NCBI RefSeq assembly: GCF_006345805.1
Contig: NC_043000.1
Location: 155,310,001-155,374,000, forward strand
DNA length: 64,000 bases
Source of the DNA: Octopus sinensis
Taxonomy: Eukaryota
Direction of reading: 5' to 3'
The notes under the pieces were generated by a model that worked only from the letters and a program-made list of their open reading frames with translations, had not been told where the DNA came from and ran no database searches. Positions 5,116-64,000 of this stretch are shown one piece after another. The position numbers were made by a program, and so were the translations under genes. How positions within the stretch are numbered: position 1 is the first letter of the stretch; the number at the start of each line of letters is the position of its first letter.

Positions 5116-5394
5116 GCACACACACACAATCATATGTAGCATCGTACGAAGAGTATATATGTGTTGTGTGTATGTGTGACTTTGCATACATAAAAAATTT
5201 TTATTAATATATATATGACAGATTTGTCTATGCTGGAAGGGTTTATATACAATTATTATATTGAGATTAGACACTAAATCACGTGTAAAGTCTTGTATTC
5301 AGATAAATATATACTCCCATAAAAGGTTGCATGACTTGAAACTCCTAGGAGTATAGCTTTTAAATTCAAAATAGCTATACACAAGATTTGAAAC

Positions 5395-5494
5395 NNNNNN
5401 NNNNNNNNNNNNNNNNNNNNNNNNNNNNNNNNNNNNNNNNNNNNNNNNNNNNNNNNNNNNNNNNNNNNNNNNNNNNNNNNNNNNNNNNNNNNNN
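5395..5494. other. Assembly gap (100 N)
   Basis: Run of N. Confidence 1.
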
Positions 5495-5993
5495 CGGCCG
5501 CTGCCGCCACCACCACCACCACTACAACCACCACCACCCCCCACCACCACCAACCACTACTACTATACTACTACTACTTCTACGTAAACTATTACTGCTA
5601 CTACATCTACACCACCTCTTCTACCACAGTCATCATCTCCCTACTCTATTACTCTTCACCTACTACCACAATAAAAGTGGCGACAATAACCAAACTCCGC
5701 TATCACCACCACCACTACCACCACAACCACCACCACCGTCACCATCATTATCAACAAACCCACCACCACCACCTCCAGAGTTACCTGCACCATCTCCATC
5801 ACCTGCACCATCTCAACCGTTTAGAACTGTTTACGAGTCACTGATAGAAGTCGTAAGAGGCCTGACATCTTCCTCGTGTTTTTAACTGTAGTCGTGGAAA
5901 TGAACTGTCGCAGAAGTACGAGAAACAAAGCTCACATCACCGAGATTAGGAAAAACAGTAATTGTACAATTGTTGTTAGGATTATTATTATTA

Positions 5994-8420: not shown

Positions 8421-8837
8421 TCTTTACTCTTTACTCTTTTATTTGTTTCAGTCATTTGACTGCGGCCATGCTGGAGCACCGCCTTTTAATCGAGCAACTC
8501 GACCCCGGGACTTATTCTTTTGTAAGCCCAGTACTTATTCTATCGGTCTCTTTTGCCGAACCGCTAAGTGACGGGGACGTAAACACACCAGCATCGGTTG
8601 TCAAGCAATGCTAGGGGGACAAACACAGACAAACAAACACACACACGCATATACACATATATATACATATATACGACGGGCTTCTTTTCAGTTTCAGTCT
8701 ACCAAATCCACTCACAAGGCTTTGGTCGGCCCGAGGCTATAGTAGAAGACACTTTCCTAAGGTACCACGCAGTGGGACTGAACCCGGAACCATGTGGTTG
8801 ATAAACAAGCTACTTACCACACAGTCACTCCTGCGCC
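8421..8837 (-). mobile_element. SINE family A, full length
   Basis: Complete reverse-complement match to 21006-21422. Confidence 0.9.
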
Positions 8838-9428
8838 TGTATAACTGAAATTTGTAAAAAGTATTTCAAGAATGAAGTATATAATTACAAAGTTTTATAG
8901 GTTTGAGTTTCTTCTTATCTTTGTAGGTGCCGGAGATGGTAGAAGTTTCAGTATAATTTGACTCCTGGCATGGTGGGAGCAGTTCTTTCTCACCTCTTTA
9001 TTTTTCTTCCGAATGAGGTGCTAAAATCGACTATGAAATGAATTTCTTTCAACACTATCCGGATGAAAGTATCACACGCCCGTACACTCACACACACTCA
9101 CACAAATTTATATGTATATATATATATATATATATATGTACATAGAATAATGAACATGTAAAAAGCGTGTGATTCATAATTTAATTCTGCCCTACAGCTG
9201 TTTCGCGTGTGTATGTGTATCACACACACAAACATACACATGTATATATACATACATACACACATTTACGCAGAGAGACATATATGGTTGCTTGTTTGGT
9301 TTGTATTAATGATTTCTGTTGATTCACTAAATTCTCCCTTCCATAATGTACGAATAACAACCATTATTTAAGTAGCTTCAAATCTGGTTAGCCCTAAAAA
9401 AATAGTAAATTTGATTTCCATTACTAAG

Positions 9429-20520: not shown

Positions 20521-21005
20521 TCGCTAGCTGCATTTTAAGTGTTGCTGGTCTGGAAAAAATTTCTGAACGGACAATAGCAATTTCTTCAGAAAATATAGTT
20601 TCCGACTCAAGTGTTATCTATTTGTGTCAAAGTTGAAGGGAGAGAGATGGTAAAGATGAGCGATTATTACCAAAACAAATATACATCAGGGAAAAACTTT
20701 TAATCTTTAGAACGTTTTCAATATTTGTAGGTTCGCTCGTCTCTAGAAGTTTAGATAGGATTTTCTGTACAGGGCTTTCATTACTTTTGGAAAATTTCCT
20801 GTTGCTGGCGAAGAGGTTAGAAAGCTAGTAGCCTAGGTCAACTTTTTTATATAGGAGCTACTGTGATTAAGTGTCTATATTCGTTATAGACACTTATTTT
20901 AGTAGCACAGATATTCGTTAGAAGACTTCCTTATGAAGGATGCAAAATCCTTGAAGCAAAAACTATGGGAGCAAAAATTATGTTTTTTAAAAAACGCACA
21001 TAATA

Positions 21006-21422
21006 GGCGCAGGAGTGGCTGTGTGGTAAGTAGCTTGTTTATCAACCACATGGTTCCGGGTTCAGTCCCACTGCGTGGCACCTTGGGCAAGTGTCTTCTA
21101 CTATAGCCTCGGGCCGACCAAAGCCTTGTGAGTGGATTTGGTAGATGGAAACTGAAAGAAGCCCGTCGTATATATGTATATATATGTGTGTGTGCGTATG
21201 TGTTTGTGTGTCTGTGTTTGTCCCCCTAGCATTGCTTGACAACCGATGGTGATGTGTTTACGTCCCCGTCACTTAGCGGTTCGGCAAAAGAGAGCGATAA
21301 AATAAGTACTGGGCTTACAAAGAATAAGTCCCGGGGTCGAGTGTTGCTCGACTAAAGGTGGTGCTCCAGCATGGCCGCAGTCAAATGACTGAAACAAGTA
21401 AAAGAGTAAAAAAGTAAAGAGT
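21006..21422 (+). mobile_element. SINE family A, full length
   Basis: A box TGGCTGTGTGG, B box GGTTCAGTCCC, CORE-like ACCTTGGGCAAGT, internal (TA)/(TG) tract, LINE-like tail. Confidence 0.9.
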
Positions 21423-24643: not shown

Positions 24644-24819
24644 CTATTTTATTAAAACTGGAAAAACTTCACAAATTACAATTACTACTAAGAGTTTCAT
24701 ATAAGCGTTCGTCTGATAGTTGTGATAATACAGAATCTGTATTAACATAACTGTCTGACGAATGATCACATGAAACTCTGAGTAACAGATTTTGAATTGT
24801 TTCCGCTTTAATAAAATAG
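24644..24819. repeat. Imperfect palindrome (~176 bp) with hammerhead motifs in both arms
   Basis: CTATTTTATTAAA...TTTAATAAAATAG ends; centre AATACAGA-A-TCTGTATT. Confidence 0.85.
24751..24788 (+). ncRNA. Minimal type I hammerhead ribozyme motif
   Basis: CTGT-CTGACGA-ATG(ATCA)CAT-GAAAC-TCTGA-GTA-ACAG: intact CUGANGA/GAAA core, stems I-III pair, GUA cleavage triplet. Confidence 0.7.
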
Positions 24820-24881
24820 AATTTTGTTCTACCTTTAGTTTCCCTGTGCTATCCTTCCCACCATGCTTACTTGTGAGTATA

Positions 24882-27800
24882 TCAGGTCCAGTAAAAAGTA
24901 AGCAACATTCTCAAACATGAAGAATTTGTACCGGCTTTTCGCAGAGTTTTGAATGTTTTTTTAAACATTTTCTCACAATTGTCTGACAATACAGATGCCC
25001 AAATGCATCAATAAATTAACATTGGTATTTTTTTAACATTGTTACAATCATCTGTACTCTAACTGTCAAAGCACGATATTCGAGCAAGTTTGCAATTCAA
25101 CTTTAAAAAAAGGACATTGAGTAGCTGAAACAGTTCGCGATATCAACGAAACGTTCGCTCCGTATTTTGTGAGTTGGAGTTATTCATTTTTTGGTACTTG
25201 TTGGATTGTGCTATTGTTTGTGAAGAGGTGGGCTGTTAAATTTATATTTGTCATTGCTGAACATTTATTGAACGTTGTTGCTGTTAAGTCGTTAAAACAA
25301 TTGTTGTTTTTCCCCGTGCGGGGGAGCCAGCATTATGGCTAGTCCGAAGAAGCAAGATGTCAAGTTGGAGGAACTCATGGAGATGGTAGAATCACGTCTT
25401 CACGAAGATTCTGACGAAGAGAGTCCGCGATTGGGGAGGAATAGCTCACATGAACAAAAAGTAATGAAGCCGTCAACTTCGAGAAAGAATGTCGATGTAC
25501 CGAGTCTATTAACGAAAGAAAAAGGAGAAGAGAGAAAGGAAAAAAACTTAACCTTCGCAACATGGAAGAACATTAAAAAAATGTTAACAAGGGAGGGACA
25601 TAAAAACAAAGTGGCCCCTTCAAAGAGCATCCAGCAAGAGTTAGAAAAGAAACATTGATTTTCAAAACATACAAAGTCAAGGAAAGATAAATTGACTACG
25701 TTGTTGAGGCTGAAATTGAAAAATGCCTCAAGCCGATATGGAATAAGATAAAATATGTAACAAGAGAAAGACGGTTTGCAACGGTCGAGGTCAGGATGGA
25801 GTCGGAAGAAGAAGCCCAGCTCCATTCGGTCGAACCTTTGAAGACATAGGAAGTAGTGCTTCTGCCCATATACATGGATAGACGGACATCCGGAGTTAAT
25901 ATTGCGAATATTCCCCTTGAGGTGAACCCAAAGTGGCTCGTCGCGGCAGTGACGATGGGCCTGGAGGAAAAAAATACAGTTCTAGACGTTGCCAGCCTCA
26001 ATGCTTCCAGTGTGGAAAGAAGGGCCACCTCAGGGCAGACTGCAAACAGAAAGAAACCGAAAGAAGAAAGAAGTGACGGAGAAGGAGACTGAACAAGCGA
26101 TGTAGTCACAAGCGACACCAATGCCAGAAGAAGGGGAAGGGTGGTCTCTTGTCCAGTACACGAGCAAATTGAAACCACACTCCCCGGGAAAAGAAAAAGA
26201 AAAATAAGAGCCACGTCAATACAAAAAAGCGAGGAAACAAGAGAAGAAAAATGAAGAAGAAATCTGCTACATGGCGGTTCTCGTCTCGAATACAGATCTG
26301 ATGAACCGACTGGTAACGATACACGAATAAAAAACGGAAATACCGGAAAAATAAAAATGGTGTAGAAATTTACAAGACAAATAGCAAGAACTATAATATT
26401 TTGGTGAATGACTTCAGAAAAGATATTGGTCCTCTTAGATTGGCCATTTCTACAAACATCACTCTGACGCAAACGAGCTCGAGAAAAAGAAGAGGAGGCG
26501 GGTTCCCCCACCGCCTCCAGACACCGATAAAACGGCAATTCTTCTTATAGCTGTTCACGTAGGATGCATAAGTGTGCTTGGCCTGGTGTCGAGCTGGAAA
26601 CAAGGACATTTCCTAAATGACGTCAGGTCACAATGTTTAGACGTTATTGTTGCTACTGAAACTCGGTTAAAAGGGCCAAGAGATCTGCTCTCGCTCCTGA
26701 AACGCTACGAGAGATTCATTTCTCCAGGCCGGCCGGGGGGCAGGGGTGGAGCGTTGGTCCTACTTAAAAGAAACCGAGTTTCAGAGAAAAGTTAATTTGT
26801 TCAGATCCAGAGAAAATTAACTGGTCGTTTTAGACCTGACATTTAGTTGTGGTAAGGAAATCAGGCTGGTTGCTGTTTATGCACCCAATTCGAGTCAGAC
26901 TGATTATTATCGAGATTTGGAGAAGTTTCTAGGCACAACACGTTCATTAGTTGTGTTAGGAGATTTTACACTATCTTCGATGCACGCGTGGATAGTTTAG
27001 CTGAAATACTGATAGGAGACCTAACATTTGCTTCCGATATCTACTAAGTCGCTTTCAGCTAGTAGATCCCTACAGACTAGAATTCCAGGACGCTCTATTG
27101 GGGACATGGTCAACTAGCGATGGGTCTTCTAGGTCTTAGACAGGGTTTTTATTAGAAAACTAGATATAGTTACATGTCCACAATATCATCTGGTCAGTTA
27201 CAGCGACTATGTAAACTGTACATAGATAAGTTATGTAGTAAGGGATCCGTAGTAAGTCCCTTTTGGCAATTGAGGAATGCAGGAGCCGGATTAAGTTATT
27301 AATACAGAGAGCGTTGACCGGTTCCATTATCAATAACAAATGGTGGTACGCCCTCAAAAGAGCCATTAAATTTGAGTCTATTAGAAATAGTGCAGGTTTA
27401 GTGGCTAGAGGGCGTAGGAAGGAAATTGAATTAGTTAAGGGCCTAGAGGAAGCCATGAGAACTGGTGATGCATCCCAATGAAGGTGAAGAGATTAGAGTT
27501 AAACCAGCACCTCGAAGCCAAGCACATGGGGTGTATCGTCAGAGTTAGACTTCGTGCTATGGGGAGTGAGGGAATCAATGCCACTGGATGGGCACGTGTT
27601 GTTGAAGCTCAACGTGGAACGATTCCATAACTCGATCGTTGGCGAATTAGCAATGTGTGTTGATAAACGAACCCGAGATATGTCGGAATTTTCGGGAGTA
27701 CTTCATCCAGCTTTTCGCGGGAGCGATGGACCGGATAGTAGGACAGACCTTACGGACTTCCTCGCCGGGCTGCCGTGTCTCTTTGGGCTGGATGCAGGGA

Positions 27801-28719
27801 GCTGTGAAAGGTCGACCACACCTTAGGAAGTGATTGGGGCCATAGGTGACTGCAGTGGTGGTAAGGCGCCAGGACTCGATGGTCTACCTTACGAGCTATA
27901 TAAAAGTATGCCAGACTTGCTCGGGCACGTACTGGCTAGCGTTTACGCGAACTGGCAACAGAATGGGCAGATTCCCAGATCTGTGCGCCGGGGAGTGGTA
28001 ACGCTGGCGAGGAAGGACTCCGACAAGGGGGATAGGATAAATAATTTTAGGCCCATCACTCTACTGAACGCAGAGATGAAGATTTTGGCCAAGGTGCTAG
28101 CAAAAAGATTGACTCGTGTCGCGGATGGCCTGATCGGGGAGGCAAAAACCTGTTCAGTCCCCGGCAGAATCATTCAGGATAATCTTCATCTTATACGCTA
28201 CACTATAGAAGGGTATGGTAATGATTCTGGCAAAGGTAGAGCACTGGTCCATTTCGACCAAGCTAAAGCATTCGATAGGATAGACCATCGTTACTTTGTT
28301 TTTTGTTCTCGCGCAGTTCGGACTGGGTCTTGGTTTTCTCAAGTGGATCATACAGCTGTACTACAACGTCGACTCGATCGTTCGGTGAATGGCTTTCTTT
28401 CAAAGCCGTTCTGTATCAAGCGGTCGGTTCGCTAAGGTTGTCCACTTTCTCCATTTTTATACGTAGTGGCCCTCGAGCCATTGCTGCGAAAGCTGAGTGG
28501 TATCCCGACGAATCCAGGAAGTGGAGGATCGGTTACAGCGTACGCAGGCGACATCACTATCATCGTGACCAAGATGGAACACCTACAGAAAGTAGACGAA
28601 ACCATCAAGGTTTACGAGATGGTAACAGGAGCAAAAATTGTTGAAATATGAGAAAATGTTGAAATATATTGTCATGAATTTCATGTTTCAAAATGTTGCT
28701 TACTTTTTACTTAGCCTGA
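24882..28719 (+). mobile_element. Mariner shell (both TIRs, TA flanks) enclosing a LINE
   Basis: TCAGGTCCAGTAAAAAGTAAGCAACATTCTCAAACATGAA / TTCATGTTTCAAAATGTTGCTTACTTTTTACTTAGCCTGA; transposase N-terminus KHDIRASLQFNFKK..VAETVRDINETF at ~25065-25157. Confidence 0.8.
25158..28639 (+). mobile_element. L1/Tx1-like LINE (5' UTR, ORF1, APE endonuclease, RT), degenerate and 3'-truncated
   Basis: DVIVATET (APE), VAVYAPN, KAPGLDGLPYELY, NFRPITLLNAEMKILAKVLAKRL, DQAKAFDRIDH, AYAGDITI; many stops and frameshifts. Confidence 0.85.
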
Positions 28720-36465: not shown

Positions 36466-37494
36466 AAATCCTTAAATCCTTAAAAATGTTTTAGCCCGAA
36501 GGCCGTGGCCATGCTGGGGCACCACCGCTGAATGAGCTACACTAGTTTGTGAATCCACCTCTGATACGTGGCACTTGATCAACAAGGGAGTTCGATGCTG
36601 CTGCCCGCATCCGCGTCTCCTGTCGTGAGGTAGGCTCATCTGGGACTCCCAACAAGAAGAGATCCAGTTTAGTTTTAAAGAAACCCACATCCACACCATG
36701 TAAGTCTCTCAGGCATTTAGGGAGGATGTTAAAGAGCTGTGGTCCTCTGAAACCCAAGCTGTTGCAGTATCTGGACCTGTATTTTGATGGTGATGTTGGA
36801 ATCCTTGGCACCACGCAGCGGCGCCCCGTTCTGCGGTTGGAGTAACTTTGAATGCCAAAGTTTGGGACAGGACCCTCGAGGATTTTCCAGATGTATATCA
36901 CTGCATATCTCTCCCGCCTCCGCTCTAGGGAGAAGAGGTTTAATACCTTCAGTCTTTCCCAGTAGCTGATATTTTGCATTGAGACGATTTTCTTTGTGTA
37001 GCTTCTCTGAATTGCTTCGAGTTCTGCTGTTTGTTTTATATTGTGTGGTGACCAAAGTTGGGAGCAGTAGTCCAAGCGGCTGAGGACGAATGTTTTCCAT
37101 AGGACCATCAGTGTCTCCTTCTCTCTTGTTCTGAAAGTTCGGAGAATCCATCCAGCTAGCCGTCTGCATTTTATCACCAGATTAGCAATATGCATTTGGA
37201 AAGATGCATCATTGCTCATGTCAATGCCCAGGTCACGCACTGATTTTGACTCAGGGATTGCAATTCTTCCTGGGCCAGTGTATCCAGTCTTCACGTCATT
37301 TACCTTTGTGTGCCAGTAGCACAGGGCCTGGAACTTACCTGCATTAAACTGCATGTTGTTGTCCTCAGCCCACCTGTATATTGTGTCCAGCTCATGTTGC
37401 AGATGCGCAATATTTTCAGGGTTTTGTATTGCGTGGGAGACTTTTGTGTCATCTGCATAGCTAGCAAGGGTGGTCATCGTAGCAACTGAAGGCA
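36466..37494 (-). mobile_element. CR1/L2-like LINE, 5'-truncated, RT C-terminal frame open
   Basis: SYADDTK, MQFNAGKF, VRDLGI, RLDYCSQLWSP, SLERRRERY; tail (TTTAAGGA)n. Confidence 0.9.
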
Positions 37495-37718
37495 TATATA
37501 TATACAAACATATATATATATATATATATGTATACACATATATAATCACATACATACACATAAACACACAAAGACACACATATATACACATGCATATACA
37601 CACATATATATATACAGATATACATACGCACACACATATTTATATATATATATATACAATGCACACACTCGCGCACACACGCACCCCGAGCGTACTTACT
37701 TATATGTTTGTATATATA

Positions 37719-38834
37719 TTGGGTTGGCAACTAAGTTTTTAATTTTGGAATTTATTGTGTTTTTAAATTTTGGAATTTATTCTTTTCGCGAATTCCATTT
37801 TGGAATCATTTTTAAATCTATTTTGTTTGTTTCAAGTAAATTTTAGTTAATTTTTGTTTATTTTTAGATCATTCAATTGGAATGTCAAGTTAAGAAAAAC
37901 GAGCATTTTCAACACCACCTTCTTTTTACTTTTAATCGAGGATCTTAAGGCCGCAAAATCAGCTCGCGACATTTGTGCTGTGTATGGAGAGGGGGCCATA
38001 ACCGCTCGTGGTTGGTATGCCAAGTACTAAAATGGAAATTTTGACTTCAAAGACTCACCTCGTTCCGGCCGTCCAACTGATTTCGATGAAGATGGATTAA
38101 ACCAACTTTTGCATGAAAATTCTCGTCAAACGACAAGGGAACTGGCAGAGAAAATGGAATGCTCCCACACTGCTGTAGAGAGGCATCATTACTGGCGACG
38201 AAAAATGGTGCCTGTACATCAATATGAAACAGCGTAAGGAATGGCTTAGCCCAGGTAAACAAGCGATACCGCGAGTGAAACAAGATCTTCATCCGCATAA
38301 AACGATGTTGTGTGTATGGTGAGACTGGGAAGGGATTATCCATTACGAATTGCTTGAACGGAACCAAACGGTCAACGCGGAACTCTATGTTCAACAGATG
38401 GAACGACTCAACACGGCTATTCAAGAGAAAAGACCTAATCGGCAGCATGGATTTCTGCTGCACGACAACGCCCGACCTCATATCGCCAATATGACCAAGG
38501 AAGCCATTCAAACGCATAGCTGAGAAGTGCTGCCACACCCGCCGTACTCTCCTGATTTGGCACCAACGGATTTCTACCTCTTTCGATCTCTTTCAAATGC
38601 TATGCGCGGAGTTTCATTCGATACTGATGCAGAATTGAGATCTTGGTTGGATCAATTTTTCGAGTCGAAATCGGGTGATTTCTACCTACGAGGTATTGAA
38701 AATATTGTTGAACTTTGGGAAGAAGTTGTAAACAACAAGTGTCAATGCATTATTGGTTAATTAGTTGTTATTTTTCATTAAACGTTTAAAAAATTTTAAT
38801 TTAAAAAGAGCCGGGAACTTAGTTGCCAACCCAA
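37719..38834 (+). mobile_element. Mariner (DD34D) transposon, defective
   Basis: TIR TTGGGTTGGCAACTAAGTT at both ends; ITGDEKW, HDNARPH, HPPYSPDLAPTDFYLF; stops, frameshifts and an internal deletion. Confidence 0.92.
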
Positions 38835-46180: not shown

Positions 46181-47300
46181 AGCCTTAGTCTTCAATGTAA
46201 ATTTATGAAAATTTATAAAACGCGGAAATTCCACGGCCCCTACTATTATTACACAATATTACTTACTAATATAGATTCGTTCTGGGTTGACTTTATCTTC
46301 CACCTTATTAAAATTGATAAAATATACTACCAATCAGATCGATACTTGGATCGTCGGTTCCCTCGCCTCACATTTCTGACTTTGTACCTAGATCAGAAGT
46401 TATTACTTCGTATACCCATGCATTTAAAAATGCACATATACGTACATGTATGCATTAATATAGTTGCAGATACAGACACATATGTTTAATTGTGTGTGAT
46501 TATACTCTCTAAATATTTAAGCGTCATTTTCCTCGATTCGTACCATACACTTACACATACACGACAACTCTTTAGTACCGTTGCCTCAACGACAATTCAA
46601 AATGCTTCTAACTTCTACATCACCCACATTGAAGTAATTGCAATGTAATACACAGCGACATTCATGAGTGAAGTGCACTCTCTAGAGTTCTATCTATCGA
46701 TGCATTAACAAGAAAATTTTAACGGAATAGTGAACTACATTGCCTCAATATTAATTCCCCCGTAACTAATATACAACTCAAACTGCTAATGTTAGAGGAA
46801 GCTCAGGGCTATCTTAACATAGCACATAGTTTACGAATATTAATATATATATCATCTGCTTCGTTTCGCCATCAATTCAATCTAGAGTGTTAGAAAGTAC
46901 ATGTGACTTAATAGAAACTCATTAAAAAGGCTTTCGTGTCGACTTTTTAAAATATTCATGTTAATATATGTGTGTGTTTGTGTGTGTATGTGTGTGCGTG
47001 TAGTGCATATTCATGTGAGTGTATGTGAATGTGTGTGTATGTGTATGTATATATATATATATTATGTATATAATATATATATATATGTATATTATATATT
47101 ACATATATATGTGTGTGTGTGTGTATACATACATACATAAACGCAAGCATATCTCTCTCTCTCTCTATATATATATAGATAATATATATATATTTATATA
47201 AATATATATATATAATAAATTTCAGGGACGTACAGTTACTGGAAAAAGTATAATATTATTTGCATTGGGAACTTCTTTTCATCGAAAACCGGTGATTGTC

Positions 47301-47343
47301 GCACGCCGATGACGGGTCAATACCCAGAAACTGCAGTCCGTGC
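47301..47343 (+). ncRNA. Minimal type I hammerhead ribozyme motif
   Basis: GCACG-CCGATGA-C-GGGT(CAAT)ACCC-A-GAAAC-TGCA-GTC-CGTGC: 5-bp stem I, palindromic helix III ACTGCAGT, GUC triplet; U4C variant and C.A at the base of stem II. Confidence 0.65.
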
Positions 47344-47722
47344 ATATCACTTAGGTTGACGAGGGAAGGATGACTTCCCTTTGCAAATACCATAAGGGCA
47401 CAGAAAGTGTGCCTAAAGCCAGCTGGAGATGATGTTCTCCTGGGGCTACAAGCTACAGTAACACCCACCCTTAGTGGTTAGCCATATTGAGATGGCAAGT
47501 ATACCTCACACATATATATATATATAGAGAGAGAGAGACAGACAGACAGACATACAGAGTAAACAGAGTTAGCGGTTATAAAAACTGACTAAGGGATAAA
47601 ATATCCGTATGTACTATCGGTATCCATTATCCGTGTTATCCCCGAGCATTAGTGTGCAAGCACACTATGCACGTGGAGTGTAGGTTATAACAGGATAAAT
47701 AAGAGTTTATCAGGAAATAAAT

Positions 47723-48447
47723 ACAAATAATCAGAAAATGGAGAAAGCCTCAGATTAACAAACAACACGTCGATTGGACCACATTTATAGTTTATTTTTT
47801 AACACAAAGCATGACATAACAAATAGATGACGTAACAAATCTTACGGCCGTTTCTGTATCCGTTGCCAAATGCTGTCTATAAATAATTGCGAAGATAAAA
47901 TTCTTCATCTTCATAGGGCATTCGAATTAAGACACGGAGCTTTATCAGACTGAAAAAAAGAGCATACAGCGTAAACAAAAGGAAGAAGGAATAGGAAAGA
48001 AAATATGGCCTATAAAAGGAGTCTAGAAGCCCAATATATTAAAAAATATATAATCTACCATCTTGGGGCTACAGGGTCTGTAGGTAAAACAGGAACTCGT
48101 AGCCCCTAGATAGTAGATTATAGGCTTTTAATGTATTGGACTTCTACACTTCTTTTCTAGGCTATGTTGTTTTTCCTATTCCTTCTTCCCTTTGTTTATA
48201 CTGGATGGACTTGTTTTTTACCCTGATGAAGCTCCGTACCTTAATTTGAATACCCCATGAAGATAAAGACTTATATTTTCGCAATTATTTATAGACAGCG
48301 TTTGGCAATGGATACAGAAACGGCCGTAAGATTTGTTTGTCAACTATTTGTTATGTCATGCTTTGTATTAAAAAATAAACTATAAATGTGGTCCAATCGA
48401 CGTGTTGTTTGTTAATTTGAGGTTTCCTCCATTTTCTAATTATTTGT
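47723..48447. repeat. Long imperfect palindrome (~355-bp arms, loop under ~10 nt)
   Basis: ACAAATAATCAGAAAATGGAG...GTCGATTGGACCACATTTATAG left end pairs with CTATAAATGTGGTCCAATCGAC...CTCCATTTTCTAATTATTTGT right end; centre ~48085. Confidence 0.93.
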
Positions 48448-48493
48448 GTGTGTGTGTGTGGTGTGTGTGTGTGTGTGTGCGCGCGCGCGCATA

Positions 48494-48526
<33 letters not shown>

Positions 48527-48559
48527 ACACAAATGCGTGTATATATATATCTATTCTTC

Positions 48560-48735
48560 TTTTATTCTTTTGCTCGTTTCAGCCATTTGAATGTTGCCAT
48601 ACTGGAGCACCACCTTTAGTCGAACAAATCGACTCCAGAACTTATTCTTTGTAAGCCTAGCACTTATTCTACGCAGTGGAACTGAACCCGGTACCATGTG
48701 GTTGGGAAGCTAGCTTCTTACCACGCAACCACGCC
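48560..48735 (-). mobile_element. SINE family A with large internal deletion
   Basis: Tail joined directly to head (CTTATTCT|ACGCAGTGGAACTGAACCC). Confidence 0.75.
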
Positions 48736-48743
48736 GTACGTAT

Positions 48744-56685: not shown

Positions 56686-58950
56686 ATTGTTGGCATCCTT
56701 TTTGTCTCGGGAGACAATGGAGTTGCGCGTAAAGTAGTCTAGTCCGGCTTTTACTTTTCATGTCCTGATACATTTCCTGCTGTGGCTGTGTAGTCCTATC
56801 CTGGACAAACACTCCCTCTGGCAGGTACCGCAAATGTAGTGAAGACTGTACCTGGCTGGTTGTAGTGCCATAGTCTCTTGTTTACGTCTCTTCCTTTCTT
56901 TCCATTTCTCCTCTCTCTCTCTCTCTGCCACTCCTTTGTATTACCTCTTTTATGGTACGTCGCCAGTCTCCACGGTTGCCGGCAACTGCCTCCCAACCGC
57001 TAATGATGTTGCAGGCCTTCATGTCCCTTTTGCAAACATCCTTGTAACGTAAGAACGTTTACCCACAGACATAGTACCCCTAGCAAGCTCTCCGTAGAGT
57101 ATGTCCTTGGGGATTCTGCCATCTTTCATACGGCTAACATGCCCAAGCCATCTCATACGTCTTTGCGTGAGGAGTGCAAACATGCTTGGTATTCCTGCTT
57201 GCCTGAGGACATCTTTGTTGGGGATATGATTCTGCCATCTGATGTGGAGGATTTTCCGGAGGCAGCGCAGGTGAAAGATGTTTAGGCGACGCTCTTGGCG
57301 TGTGTATAGCGTCCAAGTCTCACTTCCATACAGTAGAGTGGTAAGTACTAATGCCTGGTAGATCTTCATTTTCGTGGTATTGGTCTGCTTATTGTTGTCC
57401 CAAGCCCGTTTGGAGAGTTGGGCCATCGCAGCAGCTGCCTTGCCAATGCGTATATTGAGCTCAGCGTCAAGGGATAGGTTGTAGGTGACGGTAGAGCCAA
57501 GATAGGTAAACTTCTCCACCTCTTGTAATCTGTGGTCTCCAATATGTATGTTTGGGATGTCCGATGTAGCCTGACCCATGATGTTGGTCTTCTTAAGGCT
57601 GATAGCTAAGCCAAAGTCGTTACATGCTTGCTCAAAACAGTTAATGAGCCTTTGGAGGGCTTCTTCTGTGTGTGATACCAGAGCGGCATCATCAGCAAAT
57701 AGCATCTCCTTGATCAGGACGTTTCTGATTTTGGTCTTGGCACGCAGGCACGAGAGATTGAACAATTTCCCGTCACTTCTACTGTGCAGAAACACTCCAT
57801 CAACTGATGTCTGAAAGGCATGTGAGAGTAAGAGCGAGAAGAAGATGCCAAACAATGTAGGAGCGAGGACACAATCTTGCTTTACCCCGTTCTTTATTTG
57901 GAAGGCAGCTGATGTTGAACCGTTGTGCTGTATGGTGCCTTGCATGTCATCATGGAAAGACTTGATGATCCTCAGCAGCTTTGGTGGACATCCGATTCTT
58001 TGAAGCAGGATGAAGAGGCCTGTTCTGCTTACCGAGTCAAAGGCCTTTGTTAGATCAATGAAGGCCATATATAATGGCATTCTCTGCTCTCTGGACTTCT
58101 CCTGAAGTTGGCGTATGGAGAATATCATATCGATAGTTGATCTGCTACTTCTAAAGCCACACTGCGATTCCGGATAGATTCGAGAAGCAAGTAGTTGTAG
58201 CCTGGCCAGGGTAACGCGGGCAAAGGTCTTTCCAACAGTGCTTAGAAGAGATAGTCCACGGTAATTGTTACAATCACCACAGTCACCTTTGTTTTTGTAA
58301 AGTGTAATGATGTTTGCATCCCGCATATCCTGAGGGACTGTACCCTCTTCCCAGCACTGACACAGAAGCTCATGAAGGTGCCGAAGCAGGATGGTGTTTT
58401 TGCCGGCTTTGATGATCTCTGAGGGGATGCCATCTTTTCCCAGAGCCTTGTTTCTTGCTAGGGAGTCAACAGCCTTGGTGAGTTCTGCTATAGATGGCGG
58501 ACTGTCAAGTTCGCACATGACTGGCAAGATCTTGACACTCTCGACTGCAGTCTCAGCCACTGTAGTCTCCCGTGAGTAGAGATCCTGGTAGTGCTCCACC
58601 CATCTATCCATTTGCTTGCTTTGATCCCTGATGAGATCTCCAGTAGTTGATTTCAGAGGGGCTGACTTGGTTGCGGATGGACCGAGGGCCTTCTTCAAAC
58701 CGGCATACATCCCACGGGTGTCGCCCCTGTCAGCAGCTGACTGGATACTCTGACAGATTTCCTGCCAATACCTATTTGCACAGCGTCTGGCTGTCAGTTG
58801 GGTTTTATTTCGTGCTTTTCTGAGTTCTTCGAGTGACTTTGTAGAAGAGTCACTCTTGTATTGCATCAGAGCTGCACGCTTTGCTTCGATAACTGGCTCC
58901 AGCTCTGAGAGCCCAGCATTGAACCAATCTGGGTTTTGCCTTTCTCTCAT
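56686..58950 (-). mobile_element. RTE/BovB-like LINE, 5'-truncated
   Basis: RT motifs, C-terminal CGTCQRECLSRIGLHSH zinc finger, 3' end CCATTGTCTCCCGAGAC...GATGCCAAC. Confidence 0.92.
57019..58950 (-). CDS. RTE-clade reverse transcriptase, partial (no endonuclease; C-terminus frameshifted)
   Basis: Open ~640 codons with LYKNKGD, NYRGLSLL, PESQCGFR, FIDLTKAFDSV, GVKQDCVLAPTLF, LFADDAAL, FTYLGS, RWLGHV. Confidence 0.75.
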   Translation of the reverse strand: MRERQNPDWFNAGLSELEPVIEAKRAALMQYKSDSSTKSLEELRKARNKTQLTARRCANRYWQEICQSIQSAADRGDTRGMYAGLKKALGPSATKSAPLKSTTGDLIRDQSKQMDRWVEHYQDLYSRETTVAETAVESVKILPVMCELDSPPSIAELTKAVDSLARNKALGKDGIPSEIIKAGKNTILLRHLHELLCQCWEEGTVPQDMRDANIITLYKNKGDCGDCNNYRGLSLLSTVGKTFARVTLARLQLLASRIYPESQCGFRSSRSTIDMIFSIRQLQEKSREQRMPLYMAFIDLTKAFDSVSRTGLFILLQRIGCPPKLLRIIKSFHDDMQGTIQHNGSTSAAFQIKNGVKQDCVLAPTLFGIFFSLLLSHAFQTSVDGVFLHSRSDGKLFNLSCLRAKTKIRNVLIKEMLFADDAALVSHTEEALQRLINCFEQACNDFGLAISLKKTNIMGQATSDIPNIHIGDHRLQEVEKFTYLGSTVTYNLSLDAELNIRIGKAAAAMAQLSKRAWDNNKQTNTTKMKIYQALVLTTLLYGSETWTLYTRQERRLNIFHLRCLRKILHIRWQNHIPNKDVLRQAGIPSMFALLTQRRMRWLGHVSRMKDGRIPKDILYGELARGTMSVGKRSYVTRMFAKGT

Positions 58951-59048
58951 GCCAAAAATATAAATATAAATTAAATTAGAGATAAAACCACTATTAGGCA
59001 TATCAAACAGTGAAAAACAAACCAAAACATAAAAATAATAATAATTAT

Positions 59049-59668
59049 TCGACGAATTTTCGAAACTTTTCGAAAACTTTTTGGTGAAAATTTTCAAAAA
59101 ATTTTTGGTGAAAATTTTCGAAAACTTTTTGGGTAAAATTTTCAGTAAAAATTTTCGTAAAATTTTTTCGTAAAGTTTTCGAAAAATTTTTGTTGGAAAT
59201 TTTCGGTTAAAAATTTCGAAACATTTTTATGGAAAATTTTCCAAAAATTTTTGGGAAAAATATTCGGTGAAAATTTTCGTAAAATTTTTGGGCAAAATTT
59301 TCTAAAAATTTTTGGTCAAAATTCTCGAAAAATTTTTGGTGAAAATTTTCAGGAAATTTTTGGGTAAAACTTTCGAAAGATTTTTATGGAAAATTTTTGG
59401 GCAAAACTTTCGAAAAATTTTTAGTGAAAATTTTCTGTTAAAATTTTCGGTGAAACTTTTCCAAAACTTTTTGGTGAAAATTTTCGAAAAAATTTTGGTG
59501 AAAATTTTCGAAAACTTTTTGGGTAAAACTTTCGGTGAAAATTTTCGTAAAATTTTTGGTGAAAATTCTCGAAAAATTTTTTGTGAAAATTTTCGGGAAA
59601 TTTTTGTGTAAAATTTTCAAAAAATTATTGGGTAAAATTTTATAAAAATTTTTATGGAAAATTTTCGG
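59049..59668. repeat. Satellite A (GGTGAAAATTTTCGAAAAATTTTT-like, 11-13-bp subunits)
   Basis: Tandem quasi-palindromic GAAAATTTTC units. Confidence 0.9.
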
Positions 59669-61229
59669 CACATCTTGTCCGGCACTCACTTTGATCTCTT
59701 TCGGGACTCCTCTTTGAGCTCTTTCGGCATCCACTTTGATCTCTTTCGAGACTCGTCTTTGATCTCGTTCGGCAACCTCATTGATCTCTTTTGGCACACT
59801 TTTTGATCTCTTTCGGGACCCTCATCGATCTCTTTCAGGACCCTCTTTCATTTCTTTCGGCATCTTCTTTGATCTCTTTCGAGACTCCACTTTGATCTCT
59901 TTCGGGACTCCTCTTTGATCTCTTTCGGCATCCTCTTTGATCTCTTTCGGGACTCGTCTTTGATCTCTTTCGGCAACCACATTGATCTCTTTCGGCACCC
60001 TCTTTGATCTCTTTCGGGTCTCCTCTTTCATCTCTTTCGGGACTCCTTTTTGATCTCTTTCGGCACCCTCTTCGATCTCTGTCGGCACACTCTTTGATCT
60101 CTGTCGGCACCCTCTTTGATCTCTGTCGGCATGGTCTTTGATCTCTGTCGGCACGCTCTTTGATCTCTGTCGACACGCTCTTTGATCTCTGTCGGGACGC
60201 TCATTGATAGCTGTCGGCACCCTCTTTGATCACTGCCGATACCCTCTTTGATCTCTGTCGGCACGCTCTTTGATCTATATCGGCACCCTCTTTGATCTCT
60301 GCCGATACCCTCTTTGATCTCTGTCGGCACCCTCTTTGATCTCTTTCGGCACCCTCTCTGATCTTTTTCGGCACCCTTTTTGATATCTTTCGGCACTCTC
60401 TTTGATCTCTTTCGGGACACCTATTTGATCTCTTTCGGCATCCTCTTTGATCTCTGTCGGCACACTCTTTGATCTCTGTCGGCACCCTCTTTGATCTCTG
60501 TCGGCATGCTCTTTGATCTCTGTCGGCACGCTCTTTGATCTCTGTCGGCACGCTCTTTGATCTCTGTCAGCACGCTCATTGATAGCTGTCGGCACCCTCT
60601 TTGATCTCTGCCGATACCCTCTTTGATCTCTGTCGGCACCCTCTTTGACCTCTATCGGCATGGTCTTTGATCTCTGTCGGCACGCTCTTTGATCTCTGTC
60701 GACACGCTCTTTGATCTCTTTCGGGACACCTATTTGATCTCTTTCGGCATCCTCTTTGATCTCTTTCGGCACCCTCTTTGATCTCTATCGGCACTCTTTT
60801 TGATCTGTTTCGGCACTCTCTTCGATCTCTTTAGGCATCCTCTTTGATCTCTGTCGGCACCCTCTTTGATCTCTGTCGGTACGCTCATTGATAGCTGTCG
60901 ACACCCTCTCTGATCTCTTTCGGCATCCTCTTTGATCTCTTTCGTCATCCTCTTTGATCTCTTTCGGCATCCTCTTTGATCTCTTTCGGCATCCTCTTTG
61001 CTCTCTTTCGGCACTCTTTTTTATCTCTTTCGGCACTCTCTTTGATCTCTTTCGAGTCTCCTCTTTGATCTCTTTCGGCACTATCTTTCATCTCTTTCGG
61101 GACCCCCTTTGATCTCTTTCGGCACTCTCTTTGATATATTTCGGCACCCTCTTTGATCTCTTTCGGCACCGCCTTTATCTCTTTCGGCACTCTTTTTGAT
61201 CTCTTTCGGGACTCATCTTTGATCTGTTC
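59669..61229. repeat. Satellite B, 22-bp unit CTCTTTGATCTCT(T/G)TCGGCACC, ~70 copies
   Basis: Tandem 22-mers with recurrent higher-order blocks. Confidence 0.95.
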
Positions 61230-61724
61230 GGTGAAAATTTTCGATGAAAATTTTCAGGAAATTTTTTGGTTAAATTTTTAGTGAAAATTTTAGAAAAATT
61301 GTTGGTGAAAATCTTAGAAATATTTTTGAGTAAAATTTTCGTTGAAATTTTTCTAAAAATGTCTGAGGAAAATTTTCGAAAAATTTTTGGGTAAAATTTT
61401 CGTTGAAAATTTTCTAAAAATTTTGGTGAAAATTTTCGGTTAAAATTTTCGAAAATTTTTGTGTAAAATTTTCGGTGAAAATTTTCTAAAAATTTTTGTT
61501 GAAAACTTTCGGTTAAAATTTTCGAAAATTTTTGTGTAAAATTTTCGGTGAAAATTTTCGAAAAATTTTTAGGTAAAATTTTCGGTTAAAATTTTCGAAA
61601 AATTTTTGGGTCAAATTTTCGTTGAAAATTTTCAGACAAAATTTGGGTAAAATTTTCGAAAAGTTTTTAGAGAAAGTTTTCGGTGAATATTTTCGAAAAA
61701 TTTTTGGGGAAAATTTTTGACGAA
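61230..61724. repeat. Satellite A, second block in the same orientation
   Basis: GGTGAAAATTTTCG units as in 59049-59668. Confidence 0.9.
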
Positions 61725-61950
61725 AATAGCACCACCTGGCGAAATCTTTCAATTCAGGATTTGTGCACCAAGGCCGATTCGAGCAGAGAGTTATTGTCTC
61801 AGTTATTGTCACATATCCGGGTGTGGGTGGTTTTTCCGGGACTATTTGAAGGAATTTGCCCAAAGACTTCTTGAATTTTGTGTGGTCAGTTTCTGTTTTG
61901 ACGTGTGTTGGTGTGATGTTGAAGAGAGCGGGTCCAATTGAGGTGAAATT
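61725..61950 (-). mobile_element. CR1/L2-like LINE 3' fragment
   Basis: [30 protein letters not shown], homologous to the 10055-10260 copy; CAGGTGGTGCTATT 3' UTR motif. Confidence 0.8.
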
Positions 61951-62368
61951 ATATATATATATATATACATATATATACATATATACATATATATATATAT
62001 AATATATATATATATACATATATACGCATATGTACACATATATATATATATATACATATATACGCATATGTACACACATATATATATACATATACGCATA
62101 TGTACATATATACATATACATATATACGCATATGTACATATATATATATATATATATACGCATATGTACATATATATATATAATATATATATATATATAC
62201 TATATACGCATATGTACACATATATATATATACATATATACGCATATGTACACACATATATATATACATATATACGCATATGTACATATATACATATACA
62301 TATATACGCATATGTACATATATATATATATATATACGCATATGTACATATATATATATATATATACA
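61951..62368. repeat. (TA)n-derived minisatellite with recurring TACGCATATGTACA
   Basis: About ten copies of the motif separated by variable TA/TACA tracts. Confidence 0.85.
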
Positions 62369-64000
62369 CAATGCACAAGGTGTCAGCCCTTCCATCAATG
62401 CACAAAAATGGAAGGTCCAATTCATTGAAGACTGGGTTGGTAACCATTCACACCACATCCCTTTCTTCATTCTCACTGAGACCCACCTTGACAACTCCCA
62501 CTTGGAAGCCGAAGTGAGAGTGAAGAATTTCACAACCATCCGCGCGGATCGTATCGGCAGGAGGAAGGGTGGAACTGCCATTTTCCTGCATGATTCATTT
62601 ACGGCAGATGGAAATAGTATATTCTCCAATGGCTACTGTGAATCAGTCACCGTGCACAACAAAGCCAATGACCTGACAGTAATTGGGCTCTATAGGCCGC
62701 CCCAAACACCCATACTGTGCTTTAAAGAATGCCTCAACAGCATTAAGTGCTTTATTCAACAGTGCCATTCTAGCAACATACTCATGATGGGAGACTTCAA
62801 TCTACCCTGTGTTGACTGGACTACAAACTGTTTGAAACCAAGCACTCCCGCCTCAACCGCTGACAAAGAAGCAGCAGAGTCACTTTTCGACTTTACGAAT
62901 GAGTTTTTCTTGTCCAACTTGTCCTTGCACCAACAAGACATCAGAACATTTTGGACCTAGTGTTTAGTAACCACACTAACACTATACATAACGTTACAGT
63001 GGAAAAAACCCTTCTTTCAGACCATGACATGGTTCTCTGTATCATGAAATTCCACCAGCCGAAAGCTAATCCTAGTGACCTTCCTCCAGCCCACCCATTT
63101 GACAACATGGATCTCCATAAAGCCAACTGGGATGCAATCAGGAACGAGCTATCAAATGTTGACTGGTCCTTTACACATACACACATCTCCACCAACCATA
63201 AAACATCTTGGCAGATCTTTGTAGACACCGTCACAGACATATGTGCAAAACACTCCCCACCAAGACCTGTGAACAAAAAGTGCAGAATCCCCCAAAACAG
63301 AAAAACCATTATCAGAAAAATAAAAAGAACAAACAAAAAAATTAACAAACTAAAGTACTGCCAACAGCAACACACACATTCGACGGCTATCGCACTGCTT
63401 GAATCCAAAAAATATAACCTCCAACAATGCATGAAGACCCTCATCAATAACCAAAGATCAGCTGAGGAGAAGTGGGCCATTGAAAAAATCAAACTCAACC
63501 CCAAATTGTTCTTTTCATTTGCGAGGAAACTCAGGGTCACTGTCTCCACTGTAGGCCTCTAATTGACGAAACTGGCACTCTCCAAGATAATGCCAAATCC
63601 ATGGCCGAGATACTGCAGAAACAATACTGCTCTGTTTTCAGCAATCCTGATATGGCCGATCTGGGCTGTATCAGTGATGTCAACCCCCAACACACTATAT
63701 CGGACATAACGTTTAGTGCCCCTGATGTCTTAGCGGCGATAAACGAAATAAAACACAATTCAGCAGTAGCCCCGATAGGTTCCTGCTTGTGTCCTGAAGG
63801 TGTGTCGACACCAACTTGCATCTCCCTTGCTAATCTGTGGAGAAACTCACTGGATGCTGGCTATATTCCAAAAAACCTTCTGTCCCAGTCTGTTGTCCCA
63901 GTTTTCAAAAAGGGAAACAAGTCCCTTGCAGTGAATTACCGTCCGATCTCACTCACCTCTCATATCATCAAGGTATTTGAGAGGGTGGTGAGATCTCGAA
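62369..64000 (+). mobile_element. CR1/L2-like LINE ORF2 (APE endonuclease to start of RT), frameshifted, continues past the window
   Basis: [74 protein letters not shown]. Confidence 0.9.

Follow-up and report, generated by a model that had tools for sequence, protein, structure and literature searches.

The palindrome at 47723-48447 of the window, the whole 64,000-nucleotide stretch of DNA analysed here, raises the question whether it is one copy of an element that moves as a hairpin or the remnant of a retroelement insertion that happened to fold back on itself. The first-pass annotation had favoured the former. Here we conclude, with a probability of about 0.9, that it is a dead insertion of a Penelope-like element (PLE), likely of the Hydra clade, 5'-truncated twice over, and that its two pLTR-bearing 3' ends lie head to head within a microsatellite, probably as the product of a single event.

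The 725-bp palindrome itself was confirmed. Its arms (Table 1) were 87.9% identical over the 348 ungapped columns of the arm-versus-arm alignment, and RNA folding of the + strand gave a single rod of -467 kcal/mol (z = -52 against 20 shuffles). A tiny loop had been proposed between the arms; the arms stood but the loop did not, since they abut with an offset of about 10 nt. Nor does the element end on the left at 47723 as had been supposed, as it continues for about 165 bp as a family 'tail' to about 47559. Comparison of family copies with the window showed that family sequence covers it up to 48089 for the left arm, and because the left-arm match runs past 47723, the whole insertion, consisting of tailed arm, junction and untailed arm, spans about 47557-48447. 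The flanking microsatellites are likely the target site, and as there is microsatellite on both flanks, no target-site duplication is readable. Contigs of DNA runs X1, X2 and X4 (of which X1 may be the source of the assembly) spanned the junction with 0, 0 and 4 differing letters at depths of 46.5, 26.7 and 57.7, respectively, thereby ruling out an assembly artefact. Among the contigs listed for runs of three other organisms (X5, X11 and X14) none spanned the junction, which is no proof of its absence there. Depth over the centre was about 80-110 in the DNA runs and summed depth over the arms was in the thousands. Junction-spanning contigs in three DNA runs, together with an arm depth far above that of the centre, thus indicate a real palindrome with a rare or unique centre.

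Table 1. Coordinates of the features of the insertion and its flanks, in positions of the window
Feature	Position	Strand	Remarks
Inverted repeat	47723-48447, 725 bp	both arms	314/366 aligned columns identical
Left arm	47723..48089	-	5'-truncated 3' end (pLTR) of a Penelope-like element
Right arm	48090..48447	+	5'-truncated pLTR without tail; stops at the family's fixed pLTR end
Head-to-head 5'-5' junction	48089..48090	.	without spacer, offset ~10 nt; absent from other scored loci
Tail of left arm	47557..47722, ~165 bp	-	fixed family end near 47559, then microsatellite
Right hammerhead-like motif	48223..48328	+	CTGATGA 48223-48229, GAAAC-GGCC-GTA 48317-48328; core letters intact
Left hammerhead-like motif	47843..47948	-	CTGATAA 47948-47942; core mutated at G8
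(TA)(GA)(GACA) run	near 47503-47556		left flank
(TG)n/(TA)n/(TATG)n microsatellite	48445..48526	.	right flank

A search of the 2.72-Gb genome with the whole palindrome gave 848 candidates, of which 40 were scored (across searches, 40 were scored out of up to 920 candidates). Most matches at the scored loci were single arms having the same end base, followed by either microsatellite or a fixed extension, and the upstream reach of the copies varied. In the longest copies fetched, L040 and L044, the DNA continuous with the arm led, about 2.2 kb upstream, into a frame that is broken and lies on the same strand as the hammerhead. These frames matched that of an open relative, L072, with E values of 9e-37 (L040) and 2e-46 (L044) by tblastn, and the L044 frame carried CxCX5C, YIG, KxCxLC and CxH motifs. 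The fetched copies of the palindrome's family were recovered from the RT thumb onward, through GIY-YIG; the RT catalytic core was not seen in them. An intact relative, L058, about 30% identical to the palindrome's family, has an 899-aa frame with DKT and YRDD, and its structure model (mean pLDDT 78) had telomerases as its top four Foldseek matches. Atlas neighbours carry HTH_animal, GIY-YIG and RVT_1. Pfam searches with single proteins gave nothing useful, while those with 34 aligned homologues found RVT_1 in 4/34 and GIY-YIG in 3/34; a PDB sequence search gave nothing for a single protein, and a profile gave weak matches to retron RTs (best E 0.0027). L058, L059, L060 and L061 (e.g. G000:C10818:16000-25900) represent a young, intact Penelope-like family, the copies of which are 98-99% alike and which has 411 candidate pLTR ends and both tandem and inverted insertions; it is well suited as a model of how integration proceeds.

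Several characters of PLEs could thus be followed through the family and its relatives. A single-ORF, telomerase-like RT was present in L058 (YRDD, telomerase-like predicted fold), and GIY-YIG at the C terminus, upstream of the pLTR, was present as a broken frame, about 2.2 kb from the pLTR end, in L040 and L044. In the pLTR of the family the hammerhead motif is on the same strand as the ORF; its copies are 5'-truncated, occur in tandem as well as inverted, and may or may not carry a tail. Judged from its sequence, each arm represents the 3' (pLTR) end of a Penelope-like retroelement that has since decayed, and the earlier view of the arms as inverted Penelope pLTRs was borne out, as the longer copies lead into an RT-thumb/GIY-YIG frame. 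The CxCX5C linker, CxxC and CxH of the Hydra clade were present in the L044 and L072 frames, with no CCHH by inspection, and insertion into (TA)n, another trait of that clade, was also found. L058 is without CxCX5C and has RWL in place of RWK, with DKT present. By these motifs, rather than by a tree, the family likely belongs to the Hydra clade. As that clade is set out in the accessible text of PMC8557442, the likeness comprises the C-terminal GIY-YIG with CxCX5C linker, CxxC and CxH, DKT (as seen in L058), the pLTR hammerhead and the (TA)n targets. Members are stated there to be shorter than 3 kb, whereas those described here are longer (a 2.2-kb 3' UTR in the palindrome's family and a 3.6-kb body in L061); the non-canonical hammerhead and a young relative without CxCX5C also set them apart.

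The family has two fixed 3' ends, namely the pLTR end and a tail end about 165 bp beyond it; in the tail-bearing copies examined the latter is fixed and is followed by TA repeats. The tail of the young family, about 150 bp, is its 5' UTR and runs into the ORF (L061 and L058), and by analogy with this young relative the tail at 47557-47722 would be the 5' UTR following the pLTR. PLE tails in the available text of PMC8557442 measure 30-40 bp and are often present at one end only. Tails of 150-165 bp are therefore mildly new as compared to the published 30-40 bp. We did not find such long tails described in open-access main texts, and supplements may give tail lengths for Hydra families.

The architecture had been regarded as undescribed, and this did not hold. 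PLE copies that are inverted and 5'-truncated are known, and so are pairs of hammerheads on opposite strands; both have been published in PMC8557442, PMC3846280 and PMC4209133, to go by the accessible portions of these papers. EN+ PLEs often have, next to their 5' end, an inverted copy that is itself 5'-truncated (PMC8557442), and the inverted-pLTR units of EN+ PLEs (PMC8557442, PMC3846280) resemble the palindrome in their head-to-head 5'-truncated copies, junction palindrome and microsatellite targets, as well as in a tail often confined to one end (PMC8557442). They differ in that the arms at 47723-48447 are too short for any coding sequence, besides the longer tails of the family and its young relative. 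Non-LTR retrozymes (bioRxiv 10.64898/2026.07.22.740005) are likewise non-coding, hammerhead-bearing and derived from PLE pLTRs. However, retrozymes, as presented in the text available, are head-to-tail tandems with ribozymes on one strand, and this identity was rejected, since the locus has no tandem unit and is a head-to-head pair. The locus itself, as a decayed remnant of a published architecture, therefore carries little weight.

Both hammerhead core motifs were found where the first-pass annotation had placed them, with the 87-nt spacer it gave, and the palindromic helix III and weak stem I (2 bp at best) were also verified. The AATAAA after the right core is present too, as a variant of this locus; in most family copies the last position (column 301) is G. 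Of the two stem II hairpins, the left one folds well by itself (-23.0 kcal/mol) and the right one has decayed (-9.6 kcal/mol); stem II is flanked by one additional A and one additional purine. In PMC4209133, within the text accessible, dual motifs 100-700 bp apart on opposite strands are reported as truncated PLEs, and activity in vitro as low. Its atypical hammerheads share the extra nucleotide after position 9, a helix III that is palindromic and, for D. virilis, a helix I of 2 bp; they differ as regards the 87-nt stem II region with its long hairpin insert and the one more unpaired purine before GAAA. Since the intact relative has a similar motif, the long-stem-II design is a trait of the family. 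No hammerhead family appeared among the 150 of 184 Rfam matches listed, and folding did not give the three helices round the core of a type I hammerhead. Nor was the ribozyme fold the lowest-energy form of either arm; in the full hairpin the core bases were paired with probability >0.99 (unpaired <=0.003), so that a read-through RNA would, as modelled, lock both cores in the hairpin. The core was intact in 18/45 family copies, in keeping with neutral decay; its positions were slightly above background conservation (507/537, or 94.4%, against 12863/13999; p = 0.035), and this second count speaks against such decay.

How two such ends came to lie head to head was best seen in the young family. 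Every two-arm insertion with both ends visible had exactly one tailed arm (12/12), in a set not selected for the tail; random assortment of ends would give this with a probability of 0.5^12 = 2e-4. All 24 ends of these 12 pairs lie in TA repeats. The palindrome's own, older family likewise showed one tail in 13/13 pairs with both ends intact, in a set partly selected for the tail, leaving out L002, L004, L020 and L035 (one 3' end lost), the duplicate L120 and L069 of a sister subfamily. An exception, noted by eye, is the L133 palindrome of another repeat family, that of the 24.7-kb palindrome in the window, which has tail sequence on both sides. The arms of 13 young pairs differed at 16/5466 columns. 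At 34 polymorphic columns, which are linked, young arms (11 of the 12 pairs plus L059 and L060) agreed in 135/136 comparisons, as against 10981/18075 (61%) for unlinked copies; gene conversion could contribute to this agreement. The tailed arm was the shorter one in 9/12 young pairs, by at least 50 bp in 5 of them, and also in L009 and L095 of the older family. Junction alignments in the young family overlapped by 0-9 bp, with two short repeated inserts (L192 and L059), which suggests that its junctions were formed by microhomology end-joining. 5' truncation in the same family also has a hot spot, which spans -228 to -244 counted from the pLTR end, takes in about 9/37 arm limits and lies beside a short hairpin.

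Because each pair has one tailed arm, and its arms come from one template and are often not nested, we favour a scheme in which one source RNA gave two cDNAs, each primed on a different strand of the target, an explanation which we hold to be rather probable and for which the evidence comes mostly from the sister family. The GIY-YIG nuclease would cut both strands of a TA repeat, and from each 3'-OH reverse transcription would begin on that source RNA, one priming event using each of the two start sites. The cDNAs would both stop early, and their far ends would be joined by microhomology end-joining, leaving the hammerheads as passengers of the pLTRs and the hairpin as a by-product. LINE-1 twin priming is comparable in that two target-primed cDNAs are joined to produce an inversion, as proposed for Penelope palindromes. 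The second L1 primer starts internally and gives no duplication, whereas both arms of a Penelope palindrome start at the 3' end and thus give a palindrome. A stricter rule, that each head-to-head insertion uses both RT start sites, one per target strand, on a single source RNA, with the sites 150-165 bases apart in the clade, is put forward tentatively, at slightly less than even odds. According to the accessible text of PMC11167929, both strands are cut and extended by a PLE protein, which initiates at two sites bounding the tail; the same text reports that in vitro the RT start site was no different between the strands, which speaks against the proposed mechanism. No paper stating this rule, or the pattern of one tail, one template and non-nested arms, was found among open-access main texts, and we regard the one-tail, one-template, often non-nested pattern of the young sister family as mildly new. 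Such a pattern constrains how PLEs form inverted pLTRs and tails and finish integration. Should the rule be true, the intact young family in the same genome, with its roughly 400 candidate ends, would be a natural data set for PLE integration.

The strongest competitor, though we judge it distinctly less probable than priming on both strands, is self-priming, the proposal made for Adineta Penelopes in the available text of PMC3846280: a single cDNA would have folded back on itself, or switched template to itself, and then served as the template for the second arm. The pair at 47723-48447 is itself nested, with the longer arm tailed, and its junction is symmetric within about 20 nt, as are those of L002, L003, L004, L109, L110, L118, L119 and L122 and, in the young family, those of L181, L189, L191 and L195; private variants common to both arms also fit. 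A fixed transcription start behind the symmetric junctions was considered and is not supported, as 5' pLTR lengths in the young family range from 46 to 580 bp, its hot spot at -228 to -244 notwithstanding. However, self-priming demands that the copied arm lie inside the first, and it is the tailed arm that is shorter in 9/12 young pairs and also in L009 and L095. Those nine are out of reach of simple snap-back copying, because with a shorter tailed arm neither arm contains the other.

The inverted partner is common and the junction is not shared. Among 26 distinct places of the young family (from 30 fetched out of 40 scored loci, chosen only by the pLTR end), 16/26 had an inverted partner; in the older family, of the 19 loci chosen only by the tail (20 fetched out of 40 scored, less the locus itself), at least 10/19 did. 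Junctions fell anywhere from -80 to -1643 from the pLTR end in the older family and from -46 to -3544 in the young one. Since inverted partners are common and junctions differ between loci, we infer that the palindrome is remade at each insertion. The recurrence of such palindromes, their outer ends fixed and lying in microsatellites, was confirmed. It had further been claimed that they form a class of non-autonomous fold-back elements transposing whole by way of a long hairpin RNA, a reading now very improbable. The fixed outer ends in microsatellites and the frequency of palindromes would suit it, as would the 24.7-kb family with its many palindromic loci whose centres lie near each other, and two pairs of loci with identical junctions (L110/L120 and L152/L155). 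But the junction at 48089/48090 was present at no other scored locus, and the check that had been suggested, whether the whole palindrome is multi-copy, turned out negative, as the centre was matched at 3/39 other scored places with the whole query and at 2/39 with a junction-centred query, each having a junction of its own. The same ends and interior did not occur together at many unlinked loci, as expected of a MITE or fold-back unit, and the depth of the centre was low against that of the arms. The 24.7-kb centres differ letter by letter, and young arms match one another more than they match other copies. Both identical-junction pairs look like duplications, L110/L120 because a single contig carries both, 2.3 kb apart, and L152/L155 because they are on small unplaced contigs. 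Such palindromes can pass for MITEs, or for viroid-like RNAs.

A later local DNA rearrangement, either inverted duplication or gene conversion of a single insertion, is just as improbable as the whole-unit reading, in spite of some features of the arms at this locus. Its outer arm halves are closer (13/182 differences) than its inner ones (29/162; Fisher p = 0.003), as had been noticed before. The outer arms are unusually alike, differing by 7.1%, which falls under the first percentile of 975 unlinked pairs, and they have 4 non-majority letters in common, which may record some conversion. Pooling 14 other head-to-head pairs gave no inner/outer gradient (172/1386 against 168/1393, p = 0.82), thereby ruling it out as a general feature, and at 47723-48447 it may reflect some outer-arm conversion or chance. 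Against rearrangement, the outer ends stop at the two fixed ends of the family, no flank is duplicated, and very young copies are already so built, for example L060 with 2390-bp arms 99.8% alike. The alignment of arms (49, of which 4 were left out as sister subfamilies to give 45 copies) placed the left arm 7.7% and the right arm 9.0% from the family column majority; both have diverged as far as single copies have. CpG columns were 80% conserved among the 45 copies, as against 92% for other columns. The palindrome appears to have decayed neutrally since insertion, and at a rate borrowed from the accessible text of PMC13282606 the insertion would be very roughly 20-25 million years old.

The supposed viroid-like likeness failed, as no such feature was shown: the cores are paired at >0.99, the left core is mutated, and the arm mismatches are unbiased, with 16 of G.U type and 14 of A.C type. 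The same counts led us to reject A-to-I hyper-editing or selection for G.U pairs. Folding also argues against active ribozyme cores in both polarities, as in a viroid-like circle. Among the runs on record, no RNA run was listed as containing the stretch. In the putative RNA runs X10 and X20 the palindrome centre was uncovered, which is no evidence either way. Co-option of the locus by the host as a hairpin RNA, whether siRNA source or editing substrate, is hardly credible, for though a read-through transcript would fold into a 360-bp rod, the mismatches are unbiased toward G.U on either strand and both arms are as diverged from the family as single copies.

The window holds other repeats. At 24644-24900 there is a palindrome of about 180 bp, which had been thought to match the present one in architecture; it is a member of a different repeat family and shows, on each strand, a short hammerhead-like core and, to its right, a tail-like extension. 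That family (625 candidates) has many palindromic loci, whose centres, placed just 5' of the core, differ in sequence; part of the clustering of these centres is due to the query used. By eye, the extension was on one side only in 12/13 of its palindromic loci. Beside the left flank lies a very high-copy repeat (47215-47510, summed depth up to 1e6) containing at 47306-47338 a hammerhead-like motif with a U4-to-C core variant, a 4-bp stem II and a palindromic helix III; it is probably the pLTR of a third Penelope family. Copies of an abundant repeat, which we take to be SINE-like, occur at 633-799, 1874-2038, 8449-8838, 21003-21395 and 48558-48740, and a run of N at about 5394-5495. Inspection by eye also revealed remnants resembling LINE RT/endonuclease or a piece of mariner-like transposase at 57019-59226 (-) (735 aa), 36542-37639 (-), 27827-28435 (+), 62184-63562 (+) and 38047-38592 (-). 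Finally, 59055-61727 holds about 70 arrayed copies of a 22-bp unit (59680-61225), with arrays of a related A/T-rich unit of 24-37 bp on either side.
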